DNA from: Octopus vulgaris
Lineage: Eukaryota
NCBI GenBank assembly: GCA_951406725.2
Contig: OX597818.1
Coordinates: forward strand, 39,432,001-39,496,000
Length of the DNA: 64,000 nucleotides
Direction of reading: 5' to 3'
Part shown: one piece after another, positions 1,511 through 64,000 of the stretch
Position numbering within the stretch: position 1 is the stretch's first letter
Layout of the letters: every line of letters begins with the position of its first letter
Position numbers and translations under genes: made by a program
The notes under the pieces: generated by a model
What the model was told of the DNA's origin: nothing
Database searches by the model: none
Seen by the model: the letters and a program-made list of their open reading frames with translations, nothing else

Positions 1511-1657
1511 CTGTGAGGCATGCCAATAACAAAACTATCCACACCAAGTGAACTGCATGAATCAATGACAGCCTTCATTGCTGGAATCAGAACTTCACAG
1601 CCTTCAATACCGAAACGTTTCTCAGATGACCATTTTCGTGCAAGAAAATCTTCAAAT
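1511..1657 (-). CDS. OGDH: OGDH coding exon 6 (gene continues beyond window start)
   Basis: gccttttag|A TTT GAA...CCTCACAG|gtttgt. 147 nt, phase 2-2. [49 protein letters not shown] carries the hallmark KRFGxEG and GMPHR motifs. Confidence 0.97.
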
Positions 1658-2517: not shown

Positions 2518-2672
2518 CGAGTTGATCGAATAAGTCTTGCTAGGATAAGCCTCTTCTCTTCGGCATCAAACTGCATGATGTTAGGTACCTCAAATTTGCG
2601 ACGAATCCAATCGGTCTGCTCAAGATTGTTGATAAACATAAACTCAATACCTATCTGTCGGCAGTAAATTTC
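2518..2672 (-). CDS. OGDH: OGDH coding exon 5
   Basis: tttttcctcag|GAA...ACTCG|gtgagt. 155 nt, phase 0-2. [51 protein letters not shown]. Confidence 0.96.
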
Positions 2673-2867: not shown

Positions 2868-2968
2868 CTCTAGTCTCTTGATGATTTGACGTAATGGAAG
2901 CTCAGTTTGATCTCCGCCAATATAAGTGGTGTGTGGAAGTCTAAAGACTTTATCAAGATCAGGCTCAT
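2868..2968 (-). CDS. OGDH: OGDH coding exon 4
   Basis: ctttctgttag|ATGAG...CTAGAG|gtatgt. 101 nt, phase 1-0. DEPDLDKVFRLPHTTYIGGDQTELPLRQIIKRLE. Confidence 0.96.
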
Positions 2969-7050: not shown

Positions 7051-10000
7051 TGATGGCGGCTGGAATATGCAATTTACATCTACATCTGAGCGTTTTTTCC
7101 TCATTTTGTACCAGCTAATCTTTTACTACTGCTCCTGCTTCAATCCCCAATCTCTTATTCCCTGTACCCATGGAATGAAAGGAATCATTAGAACTTTCCA
7201 TATGCAATTCCCATCACTTATTATCTGTAGATTTCTAACCCTGTCTCTCCTTTTGTCATGATGTTTGAGAAGTGAGGTATTGCAGAAAATCTACTGGTAT
7301 CCAATACACCCTGTCCCATTTACTTTCTTATAATGCTAGCCATCACTCACTCAAGTCACTCTTTTACTGATGTCCATAACTCTTATTGCTATTCATCACT
7401 TTCACACTCTCATTAGCTAGCGTCACTTATATTGCCAACCTCTTCTCCAAGTGTCTGGTTATTAACAGCCATCACAGTATCTTTCCATAGACCATTTTTA
7501 TGACAATCCATTACAGATGCTCTTTCTCTCTCACCAGCAAATATATAGCAGCCAATAGTGTCTCTCTCATTATTTCTCTCCCCGTTGCTCCTAATTCATT
7601 TTCTCTTCTATCCACTCCATTGGTCATGTTGCCCAAAACAAATGGAGACGATGTATAATGTCTCTTGTCTCGCAAGATAATCCACTAATTTTATTATGGT
7701 ACCTACACTAGTGCTGGTATCACAATTAAATGTACACACTGTAAAGTGATTGGCAAATGAAACAAGATGATGAAGGTTCATGAGAACCCTATAGTCATAT
7801 CCTGTTGAGAACATAGCTTCTAGAACCGATACCATGACAAATTGCCCCCAGCACCCACTATAAAGTGTTAAGGAATTTGTTCTCTATGCTAGCATAGGCC
7901 AAATGAACATATTATTGGGGTATTGTTTTACAACTGAATGCCTTTCCCATCATTAACCTTTACCTGCATAGCTAACTCTTCCCAAGTCAAAAATAGAATG
8001 CATGTACGTGATCCCACAACCCATCAAAAAGGTCACATCAAATGAGGACCCAAACTATGATTACTCATCCAACCCATACCAACATGAAAATAGGCAAAAA
8101 CAATGAAGATAAGGATGATTGTTTAATTCAATAGATCACTTTACTTTGCATCATTCTGTCTTATTAGAAAACAGATGGTTTTAATATTGATGTATGTTTT
8201 TGAAAGGAAGTCAGAGGGAAAACAAGTCTGTTCAGTCACTGAAGAAACAATTTCATTTTGGCTCACTCCCAAGGCAGGTTTTCCTATCTCTATGACCTAT
8301 CCTTAGTTTTATCTACATAAAAAAAAAAAAAAAAAAATTAAACCAAGCAACAAGTTGCACAAAAAAGCTAATGCTAGCTTTCCTGGCACATTCACTGCAC
8401 TCTTTATCTACAAAAAATTATTTGTTCGAAATGATATGAATAACTGTAAAAAAAATACCTTAGAGAAAAATATTTCATTATTGAAATCCTGTTTGGAAGA
8501 TAATTATTTAATTTGAATTAGTCTCTAACATATCACTATTTATACAAACAAAACTAATTAGTTGAGCAAACACTAGATTTAGTGACTATATATATTTAGA
8601 TATTAGTTATATTTCTCTTCATGAGCAGATGAAATGGTAGTCTATCTCTGATGAGAATCAAATAAGATTTGAAACCAGCCAGCTAAACCCACCCCCCAAC
8701 TTCTATCTATCCAAAGAAAAAAAAAGGGCATTTATATATAATTGTCAAAATAACAATGGCTTTAGTATGTATAAAAAAAAGTTGACCTCGAAGTATGCTA
8801 CAAATACACCAGAAAACTTTAGTAGTACAAACCATTACTTAAGCATATGTAAAATTTTAAAATTTCTAAAGTATAAATATATACTTGACATTAACCTTTT
8901 TGTTATCAACTAACTAAAACTACATGTCATCATATGTTGCCAAAGCACTCCCACATGCAACCATACAGTATCAAAGCACTCAAAACAGCCTAGATTTACA
9001 TGTTCATAATTAAATCAAAATACAGGCATATATCATGTCTGAGTCAATGATAATGTGGTTTTACTAGATATAAATATTGTACATCGTCCAACACTGTTCC
9101 CTGATATTTGTAGCTATTTCTCCCAAATCCTTTATTTTTCTTTTTATAATATTCTACTCATTTTAAAAATTACATAAGTTTCAGATTTAGTAACAGTGCC
9201 TCTAAATCTGAACAATTTTTCAATGCATTAAATATAAATGTAGAGGACATTGACATTTCAATTTCTGATAGTAGTGAAATAATTTTCAAAAAGAGAATGG
9301 AGGAAAAACTTTTACAATATTTCTGTACTAAAATTCCAGAAGAAACCAGACCTAACCAGTCAAAACCTATTAACTTAAAACCCATTTACTCTTGTTTGCT
9401 CCTATAAGTGCTCCATATAATAAAATGGATAGCTATGAAGCATTTGAACAAAGGGAAAAACTGGACAAAATCAGGGCATATATAAAATATTTAAGCTATA
9501 CATATAAAGTGTATATACATAATATTTTAGCAATATATATGTTTATTGATAACTGTTTATATTCTTTTATTCACTTCAGTCATTTGACTACGGCCATGCT
9601 GGAGCACTGCCTAGAGATGAAATTCTGCTGAGGCAAATTTTTGACTCAGAATATAAGCAGTTGGACAAAATGCTGCCAACCAATTTGTCACATGGTGTAA
9701 TGATTCTGCCAGCTAACATTCTGGTGATACTTTAAGAAAGTCTAACTTTACATTTTACAGATTTTTAACCTGTACTTACCTGCATTTTTGAAGTAAAATT
9801 TCAATAATAGATTAACGAACCTTATAAATTGTCTCAAACAACTCTGGTAGGTTAATAATTTTTTTTTTAAAGTATAGCTATGCCATCAAAGCATCCTACT
9901 TACTAGAATTTAATTAAATCACACTTTAGTTAGAAATATAGCAATGAAAGAGTGAAGCATTAGAGTACTAACACTACATTTGGGGTTCTGCTCAGTGAAA

Positions 10001-12256: not shown

Positions 12257-12356
12257 CAAGGTCGTAATGGTTGATTAAAATCTCGGACATAGATGAACCA
12301 TCTGAGCGCTGATCTAAGCCAAGTGGATCAACTGCAGCTAGCTCATGACCGCGGAT
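12257..12356 (-). CDS. OGDH: OGDH mutually exclusive exon 3B (no xADLD motif)
   Basis: tttctctcacactag|ATCCGCGGTCAT...GACCTTG|gtaagg. 100 nt, phase 0-1. IRGHELAAVDPLGLDQRSDGSSMSEILINHYDL. Confidence 0.92.
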
Positions 12357-15300
12357 CTAGTGTGAGAGAAACCAAAAAAAGACACAAATTAGGAACTAGT
12401 AGTGAATGAAAGTACCGATCCAGATCCCTGAAAACTCATCTCAACTGTCAGATGCAAAATGAATTTCTCCAAAGCACTGAAAGAAAAACAAATAATTAGT
12501 GTTTGTATAATTGTAGGCCTGAAACACACATGCACAAATATATGTGTGTATAAAAGATATTACTACCTATTATTAAATTTTTGATTATAACATTTCAATA
12601 ATTTTTTATACAAATTCCTTCAGTAAAAAAATTAATGTTTTTTTTTCCTGCTTCTACGCAGCTTACTTCATGATGATGATGATGATGAAGCTGCGTAGAA
12701 GAAAAAAAAATTTAAATAGAAGTAACTTTAGCATAAAAGTAATATATATTTGGAGTCAATTACTAGTTAACAATTTCATCAAGTTTTACTTAACCATTAT
12801 TTCAAGTTGTGAATGTGAAATTACAAAGAATATCTTTACAAATCAAAATTTTTGTAAATAGGTGGTAGGATCTTTTATTCAGCCTTCATTATTCCCTGGA
12901 ATAAAACCATTTGTTAAACAACTTACATTACATTGTATGAATTCTTGCACTGTTTACTACAGTGAAACAAAATCTTCCAAATGAAAATATATAAAGTTTA
13001 TAAACTCGATATGCATAGTTGTTAATATCAACCAAAAATTTCAAAGGACTGCCATTAACTCGTAGAAGTTAACTGTAATCCTATGAATAGATCAATATGA
13101 ACGTAAAACCAAAATTGGCAATAATCAATTTCGTACATTACTACTTAACACTTTCACATATGACAGTGTCCAAAATTTTTCACCGTCCTAAATTACCAAC
13201 CTGTTTGATACTGCACGTAAATACTTATTCATATTAACATAAAAATTGTTATTATACTAATTTAACTAGATAGACACTTGCTGTGCAACACCATTACTGT
13301 ATGTTCACTTTCTAAGATGTCATGATTTGGATGGATTGTCACGATCAGGGTCAAGCATAGGTGATGGGAACTGCCTAGCTAGCACTAATAGGTGGACAAA
13401 AGAGGATACACAGCAATAACCATAGAGAGCATTGGCAATGTGTGTGTGTATGTCTGTACAAATACACACACATACATACATTCAGATATATGTACTCGTG
13501 AAACATATACATATATAGTGACAACAGTCTCAGATTAGGATTGTCTTAAACAGTAGCTGTAAAGGGAATGAATCAAGTTTATTTTTAAAGAGGCAGTGGT
13601 AAGGATGGAAAGCCTGTCACAGATAGAAACATAAAAATTCTGAATTTTTTTTTAATATTTCTTCTGACATTGTTATCTATTCAAAAACTTTTTTCCATAT
13701 TTGAAACAATAAGATACCAGCTTCACATTCAGAAGTAACAACAAATTTAAAGGATATTCAAATGAAAAACATGTTGGAAAAAAGGAATGAAATATTTCTA
13801 TTTCCAATAATGATAGCAGTTATGGCAGCAAAACTGAATTTATTCTGGAAACACAATGGAGTTAAAAATGTTTAAATAGGCTGCGTGGTTAGGAAGCTTG
13901 TTTCTCAATGACATGGTTTGGGATTCAGTCCCACTACATGGTACCTTGGGCAAGTGTCTTCTACTATAGCCTCAGGTCAACTGAAGCCTTGTTGAGAGAA
14001 TTTGGTAGGCAGAAGTTTCCATCATATGTATGCATGTGTGTGAAAGTGCTTGTGCCTCCTATAACAGATAGGATAGAATTTCTCTTTGAAACTTCTTGGA
14101 AGAAACCTATAGGTAAAATCTAAACAGACTTTTAAATATCTTTAATATCTGAACCAAATTCAGTATTTTTGCAGTAAATATAACAATGAGAATAAAGAAG
14201 CTATCCAGGATTATCAACAACAGAAACCATCAGTGAGCCTTTGTATCTCCAGTATCAAAACCAGAATGTAATTTTTAAAAGTTTTGTTGATATTTACATA
14301 TACAAGATATCAGTGTAACAGTACATGAGGGAGAATATGATCCCTTATATAAAACAAGACCCCGCTTGGGCACTGCACAGAAGACATTTAAATTCTACTA
14401 CCAACCAGGAAAAAGACTGTCCTCTAATAAAGGAATGGTGGGATACAAAACTCATATTTCCTGCAATATAGAGCATATCCTATTTTTGTTACGCGATTCA
14501 TAAGGGGTAAGAGACAGGCTTGGAAAACCTAGAAGGAACATGGTAGCAAGAAGCATTACCAAATGGCTAAAAGGACAGCTAGGTGACAAGTATACTTGGT
14601 TAAAGGTGAGGCAGAAAGGAAGAGAATTGCAAATATCATGCAATATGAGGATCAGAGTTCACAGAAAAGGGAGAGCCAAGAAGAATCCAGGAAGACAGAG
14701 AATGAAGACAAAGGTCTGGGACGAGTGTTGATATGCAGGTCTCAAGAAGACCCACCCAAGTCTGCAAAACTAAGTTCTGAAGGCATATGGCTTAGTGGTT
14801 AGAGTGTTTGTCTCATGATCATAAAGGTAGTGAGTTTGATTCCTGGCAGTGCATTGTGTCCTTGAGCCAGACACATTATTTCACATTGCTCCAGTCCATC
14901 CAGCTAGCAAAAATTTAATTGTACCTGTAATTCAAATGGCCAGCCTTGTTACACTGAATCTCTGTGAGAAGTGTGTTAAGGGTTTGCATGTCCAAGGAGA
15001 GATCGGCCACTTGCACATTAATTTCAGCCTGTTCCATTGATTGGATCAACTGGAACTCTCATCACCATAGCAGAGTGCCAGTTTATGCACAACTGGGCCC
15101 TTTGCCCAACATCTTCCTCAAGATACCCTCACAGCCCATCATCTCTCTAACCATTTCATTTGATATCCATTCTTCATCCTTAAACTATTATCTCTACCCA
15201 CATTTTACACCGATTATCCCTCTGAGCCAACAAATTATTTCTATTTCTCCACCACCATACAGCTCTCACTCTACAAACACACATGTTGGATCCTGTCAAA

Positions 15301-15566
15301 CAGTCCAGCTCATGCCAGCATGATTATTTTATTATCATCAACATTAAATAATGATGATTACTATTATCATTATTATTCAAATGCATAAAACAATATTTGA
15401 AATTATCATCAGCGATATTTTCATTTGGAATATATTGCAACAATTTTTTTTTTTTTACAGCAGTATCAGTTGAAGAATTCAATGTGGAAGTAATGTAAAA
15501 AAGAAACATTTGAAAATTGTAACCAAAAAAATTGTTACATATCCTACAGTGGCTCTCAATACATAC

Positions 15567-15669
15567 CCAATCCATAGTTTGTCAGAATTAGCTCTGGTGG
15601 AGTCTCAGAATCTAAATCTGCAGAAGCAATTCCTAAAGGATCCAATTTAGCTACATTATGGCCACGAAT
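15567..15669 (-). CDS. OGDH: OGDH mutually exclusive exon 3A (SADLD form)
   Basis: ttttcaaacag|ATTCGTGGCCAT...GGATTGG|gtatgt. 103 nt, phase 0-1. [34 protein letters not shown]. Below the ORF-track threshold, read by hand. Confidence 0.93.
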
Positions 15670-15919: not shown

Positions 15920-17117
15920 TTGGGTCATCCCATAAATAATGCGTTATTTCCAACTGCATGAACTGAAAGTTGGAGGGGGGGACAGGATAAACTACCTGCA
16001 TCAACTTGCTATAAAAACAGGTAGTAATTTTACCTAGTCCTTATTCTTAGTGCAAGTTTTGAAGAGTGCAGTTCGATTTTGACAGTTAATTTTTCAAAGC
16101 TATAATGGAAGTGACAAAGGAGTATATTTGGCATATTTTGCTTTACAAGCTCAATGAAGGCAACAACGCAACGGAAAGTGCAGGGAAACTCTGGGCCGGA
16201 AACTACAGCCTAGATGATGAGGCTTGTCCTGGAAAATCTGTAGGGCTTGATGAGGGCATCCTACAAACCCTGGTGGAACAAAATCCCACTGTAACTATTG
16301 AGGAACCAGCAGAGAAGCTTGGATTTGGTTATTCAACCATTCACCTGCATGTCATGAAAAAAGTCAGCAAACTGGGTCAATGGGTTTCTCACAAACTTTG
16401 CAAGAGAGAATGTGTGCTCTTCTTTGCTGTCACAATTCACGAACAAACCTTTTTTGGATCAAATAGTGACTGGTGATGAGAAATGGGTTCTCTATAAAAA
16501 TGTCAATCGCCAAAGACAGTGAGTAGGGAAAGGAGAAACACAAGCACCCCAGGTTAAAGAAGGTCTTCACCCATGTAAGGTGTTGTTATCTGTTTGGTAG
16601 GATATGAAAGGTTTAGACCACTTTGAACTTTTAAACCCAAAACAAATGATAACAAAGGAGATCTACTGCAAACAGCTTGAGCGGCTTAAGTCAGCACCAG
16701 AAGAAAAACGACCATCTTTGGTTTCAACACAAAAGGTGTTCTTCCATCAGGATAATGCTCAGTGATATAGTGAGGATGACATTCCAAAGGCTGGAGCAGT
16801 TTGAATGGGAAATAATGCCCCACCCACTACATTCACCAGACATTGCCCCATCTGATTATCATTTATTCTGCAGTCTTCAAAATCATTTGGATGGTAGAAT
16901 TATGAATTCTGTAGACGAGGTCAGAACAGTACTGGAAGAGAATTTTTCCTCACGGACAAGTTAATTCTGGAAGAGGGGCCCCACAAGTCTATCAGATAGA
17001 TGGAAGAGCATTGTAGAGTATGAAGGGGAGTATATTTTAGATTAAAAAAGACCTTTTTTTATCATAATTTTGAAAAATAAAAGTATAAAAAATCACATAA
17101 TTTATGGGATGACCCAA
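15920..17117 (+). mobile_element. Mariner (DD34D-type) transposon with both ends, transposase disrupted
   Basis: TIRs TTGGGTCATCCCATAAA (15920) and TTTATGGGATGACCCAA (17101-17117), TA at both flanks. Peptide remnants WVSHKL, IVTGDEKWVLY, FHQDNA, HSPDIAPSDYHLF with stops and frameshifts. Confidence 0.95.
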
Positions 17118-26669: not shown

Positions 26670-26849
26670 CTGATAAGACCGGATAATCGACTGCACGGAG
26701 AGATGATGTTCAATAATCTTCTCACTGGGCATAGCTGCAGCAGGCACCATCTCTGTACTGGTGGGTACTGGAGCTCCACCTAATGTAGGTGGACGTATGT
26801 AGGCAGAACTAACTCCCCTTGCTGTATTTCGAAAATACACATCCCAAGA
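26670..26849 (-). CDS. OGDH: OGDH coding exon 2
   Basis: ttccatttctag|TCT...TATCAG|gtgaga. 180 nt, phase 0-0. SWDVYFRN...KIIEHHLSVQSIIRSYQ matches OGDH SWDxxFR...HLxVQxxIRxYQ. Confidence 0.96.
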
Positions 26850-29800: not shown

Positions 29801-31471
29801 GGAATATATTGTCACCTCCCTGAACATATCTGCAAACTGTTCAAAACAGTGGAATCAAATGAGAATGTGGTAAATTCTATTAAGAAAAGTACACATTTAA
29901 ATATGAAAAAGGTTGGTACAAAAAAAAAAAACCAAAGTGCTACCAGCAGTATGTGAAAAAAATCTGATAGAGTAACTGTTTGTAATTGTAAAACAAATAT
30001 CAGATGGAAATATGTACACCATTGACAACATGGACAAATCATGGATATATGAAGATCAAATAGTTGAACCTTGCCTTGTCCTGATATGACAAGTCATGAA
30101 AACTAAGTTTGACAAGGAACTTTAGACTTTCATAATGCTATGAATTAAATTTGATAAATTTATTTTGTTTTTTTTTTTGTGTTCAAGTTAAATCAAATTT
30201 GTTGTGATTAACAGCCTTAGCAATATTTTCATGTGAACTGGACAAGTTACAGAATACTTTTGAGACTATCAGAGCACGTTCCATACTTTTTGTACAGTCT
30301 CACTTCAGGAACACAATGTCGGCTCAAATTACAATTTGAGTTTGTATACTTTCACAATTTCATTTCTACAAATGCAGCAATCGTTTTCAATTTAAACTAG
30401 TGTCTGAAGAACAATTTCTCAGACAACTTTGCTTTGAAACATGCTCAGTACAAAAAAAGGCAAATTTTTGCAGGTTATGCCCAGAACATAATTTGCTTGT
30501 CAAAACAAGAAACACTTTAACTGTTGATCAATAAAATTTTGTTGGGAATTGTAACCCTCCCTCTCTTCTATTCACATGTGCATTTCTAACACACAGGTTT
30601 TGTTCTTTATGGAGAAATTAGGGATTTCGCCCTTTCACATGTCATATCCAGAACTTATGTAATGGCCACTGGTTTTCTCAAGAGTAGCATATCACCAATC
30701 ATGTAGGAGAATAAAATACATAGGAAATACAAAGGTGTATGTAGGATAATGGAAACTGTAAGTACAATAATTTACAGTAAGCACTCAGACTTGAAAAACA
30801 GATTTGAACTGAAGCTATTTTCATTGAAACCATTGTGTCTAACATAGTACAAACCACAAAACATTTCAACAACACTTTCTCCACTTCTCTTACATACATC
30901 CACCAAAATCAAAAACTTCAATTGTTCCAATCAAACAAAGCAACTGCTTTCAGCAGTATCCCCTACTGATGACCATGCCTAGTGTACGACTCCCAAATAT
31001 GTGACTGTATTACTATCTGTTGGTGTAATCAGACTTAATAGTGAGGGTAAGTAAGCGTAAACCTGTATGTATGTGTGCATACATGTGGCTGCAAGAAATA
31101 AGTCATACCTGCTAAATAAAATTGGGTCATCTGCAACACAGGCTTCCACATTAAGCTGGGTATATCAGGTTACAGATTGTTCAGGAATCATCATCATCAT
31201 CATCGTTTAGCGTCCGTTTTCCATGCTAGCATGGGTTGGAATGGACCAGCATAATAGATTACAGGTTGGTCACTCAACATACTGTAGTGTCTTTTTACTT
31301 TTAACATTCTACTCACTTTTTTTTCCAGTGTTTACAAGCCTCTCCATTTTTATGGCTCCATAAACCACTGTCATCTTCAATCTAGTTGAAACCTTGCACC
31401 AGTCACAGATTTGGTCTATAGCCCTCAGTGGGTTGTCCCATAGGAACTTCCAGCTGTCTTCTATGCTTTAA

Positions 31472-31654
31472 CCCTTTAGCATTCAGATTATTCTGATGCA
31501 TATTTATTCACATTGTTTTGAATTAGTCATGCATCATCTTGCAGCTTTGAGATTCTCATGAAGTGATGGCTAATTTTTTAGATGAGCATTGTAAGGTAGG
31601 TGTGAGAGGTTGCATAATATTAGGCCAGATATGGCCAGTTTGAATGCTAAAAAG
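31472..31654. mobile_element. piggyBac-type MITE
   Basis: TTAA|CCCTTTAGCATTCA ... TGAATGCTAAAAAG|TTAA: TTAA TSD with 14-bp imperfect TIRs. Confidence 0.8.
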
Positions 31655-31699
31655 TTAAATCTCTATCTCCTTGCTTCCATCAAATATTTCAACTTGTAC

Positions 31700-32560
31700 A
31701 TTTCTAAAGTTCAGTTTGATGGATCTTAAAGCTTCCATATCTACCTTTTTCCAAACTGATTGTTTTCTAAGCCTGCCAAGCTCTAAGTCCTAAATTACTA
31801 ACCATTAGCCTGTGTTGGCTTGTACATTCTGCCCAAGAAGGAAAACTTAAGTGTCTATAACTATCTGTCCATTCCATTACCTGGTCAGAATTAGATCTAT
31901 TTAGCTTGTGTGTTCACAAGATTAATAGGTGATCAGGTGAATTTAGTGTTACAAATGATCAAGTCTTTAATATCAGAAAGTTCTTGTAGCCTTATTACCT
32001 CTTTGCTCCTCAAACCAAAGCACATTGTGAAATTCATCAGAACACTGTCCAACATGTCTCTTGAAATCACCAACCATGACAAGAAAGTAACTACTATTCA
32101 TCATTAACATAGTCTGCAAACTGGCCCTGTCCATCTGCCAGTTCAGATTGTGGAGCATATGCAGAGATCAATATCACTGATATATTAACTAAGGTTAGTC
32201 TAAGCTCAATTATCCTACTACATACTCATACTACTTAAATTACTTATTCTACACACTTCTCTGTTAATAAGATGCCTACTCCATACATAATGTCACTGCT
32301 GCTGCTAACTCAGAAGAATTTATTATCTTTGTTCCTTGACAGTGAGGAGATTGTTTAAAGTTCATCTCCATTTTACTTTTCACACACAAAACACATCTAA
32401 AAGTCTGCCAAATTCCAAAAATTTATCTAGAGAAAGATGTGTCATAAATGGAAAATTCCAGAGAGTGCCCAGGTTCCTTGGAAATGCACAGCTGTTACAA
32501 GTCAATTGTTGAAAGTGATATCACACACCTAAGGTTTTGCTTGTCCAGCCCCATTAATTA
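31700..32560 (-). mobile_element. Degraded RTE endonuclease-region fragment
   Basis: ORF 31973-32158 has VMVGDFKRHVG (GDFNxHVG, APE endonuclease motif). Boundaries approximate. Confidence 0.6.
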
Positions 32561-34829: not shown

Positions 34830-36290
34830 GCATCATCATTGTCGTTTAATATCTGCTTTCCATGCTGGCATGAGTTGGATGGTTTGACTGAGGACTGGCG
34901 AGCTAGAAGGCTGCACTAAGCTCCAATCTGATCTGGCAAAGTTTCTACAGCTGGATGCCCTTCCTAATGCCAACTACTCCAAGAGTGAAGTAGGTGCTTT
35001 TTACATGTCACCAGCACAAGGGCCAGTCAGGTGGTACTGGCATCGACCATGCTCAAATGGTGCTTTACGTGCCACCAGCACAGGACCAGTCAGGTGACAC
35101 TGGCAACGATCACGCTCGAATGGTGCCTTTTACATGGCAATGCATGGGAGCCAGTCAAGTGGCATTGGCAATGGTGTTTAAATGCTTAAATGGTGTTTTA
35201 AACGTGCCACTGGCATAGGTGCCAATCAGGCGGTACTGTTGTCGGCCACAACAATTCCACTTGCTTCAACAGGTCTTCACAAGTGCAGTTTATTGCCCAA
35301 TGATTGAAGGGTACTCTTAAATGGGCTGGTTATGCTGTACTGGCATAGGCCATAGTTATAGTCTCACTTGGCTTGCCGGGTCTTCTCAAGCAGAGCATAT
35401 CTCCAAAGGTCTCGGTCACTTGTCATTGCCTTGGTAAGGCCCAATGTTCAAAGGTCGTGCTTCACCACCTCATCCCAGGTCTTCCTGAGTATAACTCTTC
35501 CACAGGTTCCCTCAACTGCTAGGGTGTGACACTTTTTCACACAGCTGTCTTCATCCATTCACAATACGACTATACCAGTGTAGTCGTCTCTCTTGCACAC
35601 CACATCTGATGCTTCCTAAGTTCAACTTTTCTCTCAGGGTACTTATACTCTGTCATGCATGCACACTGACATTACATATCCAGCGAAGCATACTGGCTTC
35701 ATTCCTTGGAAGCTTACGCATGTCTTCAGCAGTCACGGCCCATGTTTCACTGCCATATAGAATGGCTGTTCACAGATATGTGTCATAGTCTACCTTTTAC
35801 TGAGTGAGAGGCCCTTTGTCACCAGCAGAGGTTAGGAGCTCTCTGAACTTTGCCTAGGCTATTCTTTTTCTACCAGCTACACTTTCAGAGCATCCATCCC
35901 CGCTACAACTAGTTTTTCCCCCAGGAATGGGATGGAAGCTATCAACTACAACTAGTTTTTCACCCAGGAATGGGACGGAAGCTATTTTCTGCACATTTTC
36001 AGTATTTATTGTGCCTGAGCGTTTGCCACATGCAAAAACTATCTTCCCAGTTAGCCTTTTTTTGATATTGTTGCACCTCTTGTGTGTCCATAGCTTACAC
36101 TGAGTACATCTTATGGAGTTTCAACCTACACCTTTTCTAAAGATCAAGCATGGCCATCTACCTGAAGGGATTTGTGCTCTGTCTGCCTTCCTGCTCATTA
36201 CGACACTGGTTTTTGCTTGGTTGACTCTAAGGCCCTTCAATTCTAGACCTTGCTTCCACACCTGAAACTTCTCTAGTTCTGATAATGAAT
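34830..36290 (-). mobile_element. RTE-clade LINE 3' portion, same family as 20600-21930
   Basis: Reverse complement aligns by eye with 20640-21930. Tail appears as (CAT)n at 34830. Includes a Cys/His-rich segment at ~36025-36160. Confidence 0.9.
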
Positions 36291-36804
36291 CATATAGGTA
36301 TGTGTATATGGTATATGCAATTGAGACAGTATTAAATTTAAAAAGTCATCTCGGTATCATACTTGATGTATATACACTGTCAATGAGCCAGTAACAGCAG
36401 TATTCATCTTGAGGCAACATTTCTTATGGCCTTGCTGTGTTAAAAAAGAAAAGTATTGACAGGAAACAAAAGAAAAATCATCCCAGCAGCAGCCCACTTA
36501 AATACTGTGTGCATTTCAGCGTTTTTAATGACACATGCAGTCAGCGAGAGATTCTCACATGGGTGAGAATTTCTCACTGATATAGGAAACATTGAATAAA
36601 ACGTTTCCTGATATTATGAATAACTGCCTGGTTGAATGAAATTCTGGCATATGCATTTGAAACAGTATTAAATAAAATAGCCATCTATGTATCATACTTA
36701 TTTTAGTTTTAATAATTTCCTTCTACCAATCCCACTTTTGTCTATCTAAGATAGAACTTGAGAAGTTACCAAGCATATTCATACAGCCATGCTTATACCT
36801 ATAT

Positions 36805-39700
36805 ATCATCATCATCGATTAACATCCATTTTCCATGCTGGCATGGGTCGGACAGTTTGACAGGTCTGGAGAGCCAGCGGCTGCATCAGGCTCCAGTCTG
36901 GTCTGGAAGAGTTTCTACAGCTAGACGCCCTTCCTAACGCCAACCACTCCAAGAGTGTAGTGGGTGCTTTTTATGTGCCACCAGCACAGGAGCCAGTAAG
37001 GCAGGCCTGGCAACAAACGTGTTCAGATGGTGCTTTTTAAATGCTACCGTCACAAGAGCCAGTCATGGGGGTATTGGCATCAGTCACGATTGGTTGGTGT
37101 TTTTTTACGTGCCACCAGCACAGTAGCCAGTCAGGCAGAACTGGCATCGACCACGTTCAGATGGCGCCTTTGATGTGTCATCAGCATGGGAGTCAGCCAG
37201 AGGACACTGGCCCCAGCTACGATAATGGTTTTACTTGACTCAACAGGTCTTAAGCATATATTGCCCAACGCTTCAAGAAGCTATAAACTACTTGTAGTTT
37301 TCTCCTCTGGAATGTGACGGAAGTTGTTTTCTGCACATTTTCAGTATTTATTCCTCCTGAGGATTTTCCACATACAAAAACTATTTCACTTTGGTTGCCA
37401 GATCTTCTCAATCACAGCGTATCTCCAAAGGTCCTGGTCTCCTGTCATTGCTTGTGTGAAGCCCAATGTTCGAAGTAATGCTTCACCATCTCATCTCATA
37501 TCTTTCTGGGTCTACTTCTACAGGTTCCTTCCAAAGTTAGGGAGTGGCACTTCCTTACACAGCTGTTTTCATTCATATGTAACACATGGCCATACCAGCA
37601 CAGTCGTCTCTCTTGCACACCACATTTGATGCTTCTTATGCCCAACTTTTCTCTCGGGGTGTTTACACTCTGTCTTGTATGCATACTGACATTAAACATC
37701 CAGTGGATCATACTAGCTTTATTTCTTTCAAGCCTACACATGTCCTCAGCATTCATGGCCCATGTTTCACTGTTGTGTAGCATGGCTGTTTGCACACATG
37801 CATCATACAGTCTACCTTTCACCCTGAGCAAGAGGCCTTTAGTTGCCAGCAGAGGTAAGAGCTCTCTGAACTTTGCTCAGGCTATTCTATCTCTAGTCTC
37901 TACACTCTCAGAGCAACCACCACTCCCACTACAGACGTTGTTTTTTAAGTAGCAGAAGCTATTAACTACTTCTAGTTTCTTCCTCTGGCATGTGATGGAA
38001 TCTGTTTTCTGTACATCTTCAGTGTTTATTGCCCCAGTGTATCTGCTACACACAAAAACTATTTTCCTGGTTAATCTTCCTTTGATATTGCTGCACCTTT
38101 TATGTCTACTTTTCCAATTGCGCATGGATCAAATGAAATTCATTAGTAAATTCTTAGTAAAGCATTTGCTTTTGCTAAGCTTGCTTTAAGGGCTCTCAAT
38201 TCCAGATTTTCTTTCCATATCTTGAATTCCAGCTTCAATTCTTCTACTGGAAAGATAAATTGTCAGTATGCAGGGGATCTCACAGGCAGTATCTTAGATT
38301 CCTCTGTAATGGCTCAGAGAAATAAAATAAATAGAAAGGAACTGAGAACTGAGCCATGACGTACCTCCCACATGCACACTAAATTCATTATTTAACTCAT
38401 TGCTGATTTTCACTTTGCTAACTGATCTTTCATATATAGCATGTATGGCTCTAACAAACCATTCATTCATTCTTAACTTCCTTAATGACCACTAACTCAA
38501 AGTGCATGGGACCCTATCAAAGACCTCCAGATTGACAATTGCAAGGTATAGGGAAACATTCCTATCCATGCATTTTGCTTGCAGTTGTCTCACAAGGAAT
38601 ATGGTCCCAGTGGTGCCTCTTTTCAAGACAAAGCCAAACCCCATAATCCTGTCCCTAATCCATTTTGCAATAATCATTTGTCACATCATAATCCGGTTTA
38701 ACACTGATCTCTCAGTAGTTACATCTCTTTAGTACATCTCCTTTGCCTCTTTAATTTATGATGATACTGCATTGGGTATGACTGTCACTTGAATTACTCT
38801 TCAAGTGACCAGCCTGTGCCCTACTTTGCAGTGTATTTTAAGAATTTCAGCAACTATCCCTGCCAGCTTATTTTCTTTCCCTACCTTCATGTCCTTTATC
38901 TACCTTAATACTGTCAACTTGGATGGCTGGTCCCATTGTTGACACCGTCCACATTCAGTAGCTTCCCAGAGTAACACTTCCATACCTTTCCTACCTATGT
39001 CAGTGAGAATAAGTGTACCATTATCATTTCACATACCAGCATGGGAGCCAGTACCGCCTGACTGGCTCCCATACCAGTGGTATGTAAAAAGCACCATTTG
39101 AGTGTGATTGATGCCAATGCCACCCGACTGGCCGCTATGTCAGTGGCATGTAAAAAGCACCCACTACACTCTCAGAGTGGTTGGTGTTAGGAAGGTCATC
39201 CAACTGAAAAAAACTTACCAGATCAGATTGAGGCCTGGTGCAGCCTCCTAGCTTGCCAGTTTTCAGTCAAACCGTCCAACCCACACCAGCATGGAAAGCA
39301 GACATTAACTGATGATGATTTCTTACTAAAATTTCAATATTGTCTAGCAATGCAGAACACTTCATGCCATAAAATGCGTGCAAACTTCTTTTCTGCTTCT
39401 CCTCCAGCTATGCATACCTGACATTCAGCTTCTTTTTAACAACTAGGTATTCTCTGCTGCTCCCTTTCTTCCAGTCTTTTCAGGGTTGTCTCTTTGCATT
39501 TAAGGCACTTTCTATAGTACTGTTGCAATGCACTAGCCTGCATTTAGCTGGAATCATGCACTAGCCACATGTCTGTCATCCCTAGCACATTTTCCAGTAA
39601 AAACTGTTAGTTTTTTTCTCTATTATATGCCTCTATCTTATAGTCACAAACCACTAGTCTATATAAGAAGATACTTTCTTTCTTTTGGGAAGAATTTGGC
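36805..39700 (-). mobile_element. Longer degraded RTE LINE, interrupted by a plus-strand 3' tail copy (39040-39320)
   Basis: ORF pieces 37496-37831, 37877-38125 and 38492-38677 (GTTGTIFLVRQLQ..LYLAIVNLEVFDRVP, RT motif). Boundaries approximate. Confidence 0.8.
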
Positions 39701-43289: not shown

Positions 43290-43523
43290 CTTATGTACAC
43301 TGTTCGGATCTTTCTGCCAAGCAGAATACATTTCTTCCAAGTAGGAAGACGAGCTCCCATTAAGGAAGGGTTCTGCAGCTGCTTGGGTACCATAGTTAAT
43401 CCGATTTGACTTTGGGATGGAATTTGAAGTCTTGGACTGATGGTTGTGGAGAGTAGTCCATGCCTGCCGCTGGTGCGTGATACGCACAGGAAATTTGAAA
43501 AACGTCCTGCTAATGCGGTACAT
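43290..43523 (-). CDS. OGDH: OGDH (2-oxoglutarate dehydrogenase E1) first coding exon, including mitochondrial transit peptide
   Basis: ATG at 43523-43521. Encodes MYRISRTFF...[32 protein letters not shown], matching the OGDH N-terminal motif EPFLxGxSxxYxEEMYxxWxxDPxSVH. First ~50 aa are R/S/T-rich with no acidic residues. Donor AAG|GTAAGT, phase 0, 234 nt. Confidence 0.96.
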
Positions 43524-63379: not shown

Positions 63380-63782
63380 TTTTTTCTCGGGAGACAATGG
63401 AGTTGCGCATAAAGTAGTCTAGTCTGGCTTTTACATTTCATGTCCTGATACATTTCCTGCTGTGGCTGTGTAGTCCTATCCTGGACAAACACTCCCTCTG
63501 GCAGGTACCGCAAATGTAGCGAAGTCTGTTCCTGGCTGGTTGTGATGCCATAGTTACTTGTTGACGTCTTTTTCTGTCTTTCCATTTCTCCTCTCTCTCT
63601 CTGTCATTCCTTTGTATTCCCTCTCTTACGGTACGTCGCCAGTCTCCACGGTTGCCGGCAACTGCCTCCCAACCGCTAATATTGATGTTGCAGGCCTTCA
63701 TGTCCCTTTTGCAACTCCGTATAGTATGTCCTTGGGGATTCTGCCATCTTTCATACGGCTAACATGCCCAAGCCATCTCATA
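63380..63782 (-). mobile_element. RTE (BovB-like) LINE 3' end with C-terminal zinc finger
   Basis: WLGHVSRMKDGRIPKDILYG...WEAVAGNRGDWR...YICGTCQRECLSRIGLHSHSRKC. Confidence 0.85.
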
Positions 63783-64000
63783 CATACATACATACATACA
63801 TATATACATATATATACATGTAACACTCTCGGAGTGGTTGGCATTAGGAAGGGCATCCAGATGTAGAAACTCTGTCAGATCAGATTGGAGCCTGGTGCAG
63901 CCATCTGGTTCACCAATCCTCAGTCAAATAGTCCAACTCATGCTAGCATGGAAAGCAGACGTTAAACGATGATGATGATGATATAACTATATATATATAT

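Follow-up and report, generated by a model that had tools for sequence, protein, structure and literature searches.

Mutually exclusive exons 3A and 3B of the octopus OGDH gene encode alternative versions of the loop that aligns with the human Ca2+ site

Background

Vertebrate OGDH genes carry the tandem exons 4a and 4b, of which 4a specifies the Ca2+-insensitive form LS1 and 4b, encoding the acidic motif DADLD, the form S1 (PMC7969005). Joint use of the two exons is prevented by branch points located 25-41 nt past the upstream donor, and the pair has been linked with ATP supply driven by Ca2+ and, further, with endothermy (PMC7969005). The ligands of Ca2+ in the human protein are D154, D156, D158 and S160 (PMC10827220). 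With respect to invertebrates, DADLD was described without a duplication in Lottia, and SADLD in nematodes, rotifers and insects (PMC7969005). A tandem exon duplication of OGDH in the Pacific oyster is catalogued as event 149 in PMC8373072, which dates the duplication to Bilateria. Incompatible reading frames were recorded for 20 of the 28 human genes (71%) that contain mutually exclusive exons and have Drosophila orthologues (Hatje et al. 2017, PMC5740500). OGDH is mentioned neither in the main text of PMC7954323 nor in the cited part of PMC4494069. A literature search carried out mostly without subscription papers returned nothing on cephalopod OGDH isoforms or exon order. An article by Denton from 2016 is said to address how the duplication arose, and alignments of invertebrate sequences may already be shown there.

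The present analysis deals with a stretch of 64,000 nucleotides from Octopus vulgaris (contig OX597818.1, positions 39,432,001 to 39,496,000 of the forward strand), referred to here as the window, in which an initial annotation made from the sequence had pointed out two alternative OGDH exons. That annotation overlooked the earlier publication of the mollusc event and the reversal of the exon order with respect to vertebrates.

Results

The 5' part of the OGDH gene is located on the minus strand of the window, and its exons are compiled in Table 1. The initial description of two homologous exons of phase 0-1 with good splice sites and a distance of about 3.2 kb was confirmed by tblastn and by inspection of the splice sites. 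When the 3A peptide was compared with the window, 3B was matched with an E value of 2.5e-4 and 38% amino-acid identity. The peptide of 3A consists of 34 residues followed by G, and the exon is flanked by an acceptor ending in CAG and a donor starting with GTATGT; the peptide of 3B is IRGHELAAVDPLGLDQRSDGSSMSEILINHYDL followed by G, with TAG at the acceptor and GTAAGG at the donor. The pyrimidine-rich tracts preceding the AG acceptors have pyrimidine fractions of 0.77 (3A) and 0.82 (3B). Being adjacent, homologous, of like length and of the same phases, the exons have the make-up of a tandem mutually exclusive pair. A third exon copy was detected neither by a motif scan of the minus strand of the window nor among the best 60 tblastn rows in the window, in which no other match was better than E 3.8. 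A genome search yielded at least one matching locus each for 3A and exon 5, with no second OGDH locus among the matches listed.

Table 1. Features of the OGDH gene in the window. P0001 is the RefSeq OGDH protein of Octopus bimaculoides; X21, X22 and X24 denote sequencing runs.
Feature	Position	Strand	Evidence
First coding exon, 78 codons including the N-terminal leader	43290..43523	-	ORF scan; residues 1-78 of P0001
Coding exon 2, 180 nt, common upstream exon, phase-0 donor	26670..26849	-	100% match to P0001
Alternative exon 3A, 103 nt, phase 0-1, SADLDSE at the human Ca2+ site	15567..15669	-	joined to exon 4 in run X21; RefSeq isoform X1
Intron between 3A and 3B, 3,210 nt, 158 AG dinucleotides, AG-free zone of 39 nt	12357..15566	-	
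Alternative exon 3B, 100 nt, phase 0-1, no acidic motif	12257..12356	-	joined to exon 4 in runs X21, X22 and X24; RefSeq isoform X2
Exon 4, 101 nt, common downstream exon, with the TAG met upon double skipping	2868..2968	-	
Exon 5, 155 nt	2518..2672	-	
Exon 6, 147 nt; gene extends past the window start	1511..1657	-	P0001 runs to 1008 aa

Exon 4 of the window reads PLRQIIK, whereas P0001 has PLREIIK (Gln versus Glu); since the run contigs contain no other letters at this position, the difference is likely to be allelic. Short interspersed repeats, at which contigs derived from other copies reach a very high depth, are located at 9575-9612, 13924-13992, 14826-15029 and 15938-16310, and SINE-like text similar to interspersed repeats recurs across the window. 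Broken reading frames on the minus strand (35857-38680, 31300-32500 and 63441-63923) are taken by us to resemble fragments of LINE reverse transcriptases.

In silico splicing revealed an open reading frame from exon 2 to exon 6 when either 3A or 3B was used alone. Inclusion of both exons led to a TGA codon at nt 11-13 of 3B, and skipping of both to a TAG codon at nt 97-99 of exon 4, in line with the immediate stop and the stop at the end of exon 4 that had initially been pointed out. Splice junctions between positions 2400 and 16400 were read from the contigs of four of the 24 listed runs, which were guessed to be RNA; these contigs indicate the presence of a junction and not tissue ratios. 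Joining of 3B to exon 4 was observed in three of the four runs and joining of 3A to exon 4 in one, in each case with GT-AG ends, and run X23 contained neither junction. A junction between 3A and 3B appeared in none of the four runs, a weak observation since just one run shows 3A joined at all. The junctions of exon 2 are deduced from the full-length proteins on record for either form and thus come from protein records rather than reads. The suspicion that annotations might miss one of the exons did not hold, as both are annotated in RefSeq for Octopus bimaculoides: XP_014777605.1 (isoform X1) contains 3A and XP_014777606.1 (isoform X2) contains 3B. Additionally, both OGDH forms are on protein record for O. 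vulgaris and O. sinensis. These data indicate that octopus OGDH splices in either 3A or 3B and, with the comparisons below, that the two exons constitute a real, used and conserved mutually exclusive pair.

The proteins of other molluscs were compared by means of the labels A and B, which were assigned according to sequence type in this analysis. Both forms were found in one cluster for the cephalopods O. bimaculoides and O. vulgaris/O. sinensis as well as for Patella caerulea, Haliotis rufescens/cracherodii, H. rubra, Littorina saxatilis, Babylonia areolata, Pomacea canaliculata, Biomphalaria glabrata, Physella acuta and Dreissena polymorpha. Batillaria and Tegillarca each provided one named form, with the second form represented by another member of the cluster, and a single form was seen in Argonauta, Aplysia, Solemya, H. 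asinina and B. pfeifferi. The A and B forms are both present in cephalopods, gastropods and bivalves. Four named A/B protein pairs that were checked are 100% identical outside the exon; isoforms X1 and X2 of O. bimaculoides likewise differ in the exon only. Cephalopod-like proteins of cluster 3, with a downstream identity of about 90%, match 3B at 31 of 33 residues and 3A at 33-34 of 34.

A tree of the mollusc exons was calculated from 36 rows and 34 columns, after eight of 42 rows had been omitted (four near-identical cephalopod rows and four divergent or unclear ones) and two had been added. One branch set off all 17 A rows and another all 15 B rows (91/78 and 89/90, neither starred), as would be expected if the duplication preceded the split of the three classes. 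We infer from the exon sequences that the duplication would be older than the separation of cephalopods, gastropods and bivalves; a duplication confined to cephalopods was not rejected in this tree (p-AU 0.11).

In the land snails Bradybaena similaris (P0040/P0044) and Candidula unifasciata (P0064/P0043), A-type and B-type proteins originate from different genes. The A and B genes are located on different contigs and are 91% identical outside the exon, compared with 96.5% between the B genes and 93.9% between the A genes. It looks as if splice isoforms had been split into paralogues after a gene or genome duplication in these snails, and each gene may still hold both exons.

Exons 3A and 3B encode an N-terminal loop that aligns with the human DADLD. 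At the positions of the human ligands 154, 156, 158 and 160, the residues S, D, D and E are present in 3A, whereas 3B is without a counterpart in register. The assignment of the exons to a Ca2+-sensing site stands insofar as the loop holding the human site is exchanged, but it has to be qualified because 3A, with S-A-D-L-D instead of D-x-D-x-D, keeps two of the three Asp residues of the human motif. Among 20 mollusc A rows, five of which are cephalopod near-copies, position 154 is occupied by S in eight, D in seven, A in four and H in one, while D156 is present in all 20, D158 in 18 and E160 in 18; the full D-x-D-x-D motif occurs in five. Several bivalve and limpet A exons have retained DADLD, and six of 15 mollusc B rows keep D156. 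Most of the motif is also found in single-copy fungal-like and nematode sequences. In a metagenome scan, many fungal-like loci (most of L008-L067) have one copy in which DADL precedes D, Q, A, S or E, so that the motif is far older than animals.

The metagenome scan comprised 67 loci, six of which contain a tandem exon pair (L004 with its duplicate L005, L006, L009, L025 and L060). The phase 0-1 frame is shared by the four loci at which splice sites were checked (L004, L006, L009 and L025). Locus L009 groups with Dreissena in the tree and has the motif exon first, as in octopus, whereas L006 has the motif-less exon first and the motif exon second. The arthropod label of L006, like the fungal and rotifer labels used here, is our assumption based on sequence likeness and on grouping with proteins; with this label, L006 bears out the initial remark that arthropod OGDH has alternative exons at this place. 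L004 (10001-10750) is an animal locus in which a DADLD exon is followed by a longer exon lacking the motif, and for which the tree and the protein atlas gave no placement. If it belonged to an invertebrate chordate, the exon order would vary even within chordates. The AT-rich, rotifer-like loci L025 (2642-2948) and L060 (491-810) each contain two tandem exons; those of L025 are 101 nt apart, with SADLD first and DADLS second, so that neither copy has clearly lost the motif. Accordingly, the motif exon comes first in the octopus window, L009 and L004, and second in vertebrates and L006. The human gene has the motif-less exon 4a preceding 4b, and the vertebrate-like gene model P0098 reads the same order. 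Furthermore, the human unit ends before GFYGL, which is common to both isoforms, and thus five codons earlier than the mollusc unit; the motif exons of molluscs, L004 and L006 include the matching YxL.

The steric layout known from vertebrates, with a distant branch point, was ruled out on sequence, since a branch-point-like CTAAT predicted at about 33 nt before the 3B acceptor accompanies the short AG-free zone and the many AG dinucleotides of the intron (Table 1). AG-free zones of 17-39 nt were measured at L004, L006, L009 and L025, and the distant layout is missing there too. The initial argument that the spacing of the exons excludes steric interference was faulty, because the branch points of vertebrate OGDH adjoin the upstream donor; its conclusion survives by virtue of the short AG-free zone before 3B.

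Stop codons more than 55 nt upstream of further exon junctions represent the usual geometry for decay. The stop resulting from joint inclusion lies 87 nt before the junction of 3B and exon 4, and that resulting from double skipping about 157 nt before the junction of exons 5 and 6. Products with both exons or with neither exon would thus be expected to be removed by nonsense-mediated decay. As the distant-branch-point layout is missing and RNA pairing is unsupported (see below), frame incompatibility combined with decay is the likely exclusion filter, as judged from the frames and stop positions. Since decay alone would be wasteful, further splicing control probably exists.

Discussion

The different observations can be joined into one explanation that we regard as reasonably probable in its entirety: two old tandem copies of an exon are subject to either/or splicing, misproducts would be eliminated by decay, and the exchange of 3A and 3B would tune the allosteric control of OGDH. 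The initial annotation had named an exon that is never spliced and not under purifying selection in relatives as a finding that would overturn its proposal, and a dead pseudo-exon has practically no probability: apart from the divergence of 3B from the consensus nothing speaks for it, and both exons are spliced, annotated and conserved, so that this reading is refuted at the level of transcripts and by the identities of 31/33 and 33-34/34 residues in relatives. With respect to the mode of exclusion, decay or RNA pairing had been proposed. The coupling of a frameshift to decay as a likely filter agrees with the first proposal, whereas the second, in which competing docking/selector RNA helices would enforce the choice, appears improbable. 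Pairing was calculated for 15 pairs of segments of 200 nt beside each splice site, of which 14 were at chance level. The remaining candidate helix links the middle of 3A (15621-15600) to the intron (12438-12417); the arm in 3A covers the motif codons, and that in the intron lies directly upstream of the putative 3B branch point. Its energy of -27.3 kcal/mol is the lowest of the 15 pairs and below that of all 118 tiles of the gene span, and two of 40 shuffles were as low; but it was chosen post hoc, its compact form was matched by 32 of 300 shuffles and is not significant, and no similar helix exists at L009, L004 or L025.

With respect to function, it is likely that the exchange of the two exons would tune the enzyme rather than act as Ca2+ on/off control: the prediction is that 3B does not sense Ca2+ and that 3A shows a weak response at most, and a kinetic or tissue difference between both forms would be expected. 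A true switch as in vertebrates would mean that 3A is Ca2+-activated, with Ser154 and Glu160 substituting for human Asp154 and Ser160, that 3B is insensitive, and that muscle uses 3A and other tissues 3B. Such a switch is considered rather unlikely on the basis of the alignments and ranks below other ways of tuning the allosteric loop. In its favour are the D156, D158 and E160 counts of the mollusc A rows, the three carboxylates and one hydroxyl that 3A offers at the four ligand positions, the DADLD of several bivalve and limpet A exons, and the fact that the junction shown differs between runs. The kept acids together with Glu160 leave room for Ca2+ binding, and Glu160 could replace the lost Asp in this respect. 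However, the variable first position argues against a conserved site of the vertebrate type, E160 is present also where D154 is kept and hence is not a compensating change, six B rows retain D156, and the motif may be structural, since fungal-like and nematode sequences with a single exon contain all or most of it. Insect OGDH, moreover, was reportedly found to be Ca2+-insensitive by McCormack and Denton in 1981, which also counts against a switch. For the human enzyme, exchange of the first Asp for Ala abolishes Ca2+ sensitivity, and the effect of an exchange for Ser is stated to be unknown (PMC7969005; cf. PMC9177970).

The reversed exon order implies that the motif was lost from opposite copies, either after separate duplications or after one duplication followed by reciprocal loss and a boundary shift. 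A wider exon tree was built from 47 hand-picked rows and 34 columns. In the best tree, vertebrate 4a, mollusc B and the arthropod-like motif-less exons formed three separate groups, and the mollusc A exons were not set off by a single branch; of the six hypotheses on the origin that were tested, none was rejected (p-AU 0.065-0.33). The proposed phylogeny across bilaterians thus separated the motif-less exons but, having too few columns, did not decide between the origins. Based on these sequence comparisons, we lean slightly towards an origin of the mollusc pair separate from that of vertebrate 4a/4b. A single duplication in the bilaterian ancestor, after which molluscs retained the motif in the first copy and vertebrates in the second, nevertheless retains considerable weight, if somewhat less than even. 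PMC8373072, in the cited part, lists OGDH of the Pacific oyster among events predating the vertebrate-invertebrate split. Tandem pairs with the same phase 0-1 frame occur in L004, L006, L009 and L025, several gastropod B exons resemble vertebrate 4b (RGHH, DLxSSxP), and the positional groupings of 4a with mollusc A (p-AU 0.26) and of 4b with mollusc B (0.24) were not rejected. On the other hand, a single origin requires that at least three lineages lost the motif reciprocally and that the 3' boundary moved in both copies of the vertebrate pair, the motif-less exons fall into the three groups named above, and a vertebrate-only clade was the cheapest of the six tests (3.75 likelihood units, not significant). 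A more far-reaching version of separate origins has the exon duplicated independently at least three times, in vertebrates, molluscs and arthropods and perhaps in the lineages of L004 and L025, with one copy shedding the acidic loop each time, cephalopods ending up with a rearranged S-D-D-E site and with frameshift decay in place of distant branch points, and land snails with a separate gene for each form; this we regard as quite doubtful. If independent duplications did take place, control of OGDH through its isoforms, by Ca2+ or some related ligand, would have arisen repeatedly rather than as a vertebrate invention.

With regard to known systems, the basic finding is already annotated and the occurrence in molluscs is already in print. 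RefSeq isoforms X1 and X2 of Octopus bimaculoides correspond exactly to exons 3A and 3B, as an automatic annotation without functional reading, and the Pacific oyster duplication (PMC8373072, event 149) is by all appearances the same mollusc event, of which octopus provides another member. The cited part of that study gives no exon order, boundary, motif or cephalopod data, and the order and boundary described here call its single-origin dating into question. The absence of a duplication in Lottia (PMC7969005) may represent an annotation gap, since the limpet Patella has both exons. With the frameshift-enforced and NMD-enforced exon pairs of Hatje et al. (2017, PMC5740500, in the cited part), octopus OGDH shares the incompatible frames upon joint inclusion, with decay of the octopus products as a predicted step.

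The vertebrate 4a/4b pair (PMC7969005, in the cited part) concerns the same gene and the same loop and likewise consists of tandem homologues of phase 0-1. In both cases one copy has the acidic motif and the other does not, and the combined length is not divisible by three; human 4b, like octopus 3A, has 103 nt. The differences comprise the exon order (motif exon second in human, first in octopus), the intron between the exons (122 nt with distant branch points in human, according to supplement coordinates of PMC7969005, as against 3,210 nt with a 39-nt AG-free zone in octopus), the end of the unit (before GFYGL in human, after YxL in molluscs) and the motif itself (DADLD versus SADLD). In addition, a counterpart of the vertebrate cassette exon 5 was not seen in the octopus run contigs or the mollusc proteins. 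What seems to be new is the position of the motif exon, which comes first in octopus and the bivalve-like locus and second in vertebrates and the arthropod-like locus, together with the earlier end of the vertebrate unit. The inverted exon order, the eroded motif and the differences in boundary and exclusion mechanism are modest additions that lend themselves to testing. Molluscs provide a natural comparison to vertebrates, since the same loop is exchanged with reversed exon order, a different exclusion mechanism and the natural variants D, S, A and H at the first Asp, and mollusc OGDH makes it possible to test both the Ca2+ regulation of invertebrate OGDH and whether convergence lies behind the Bilateria date.
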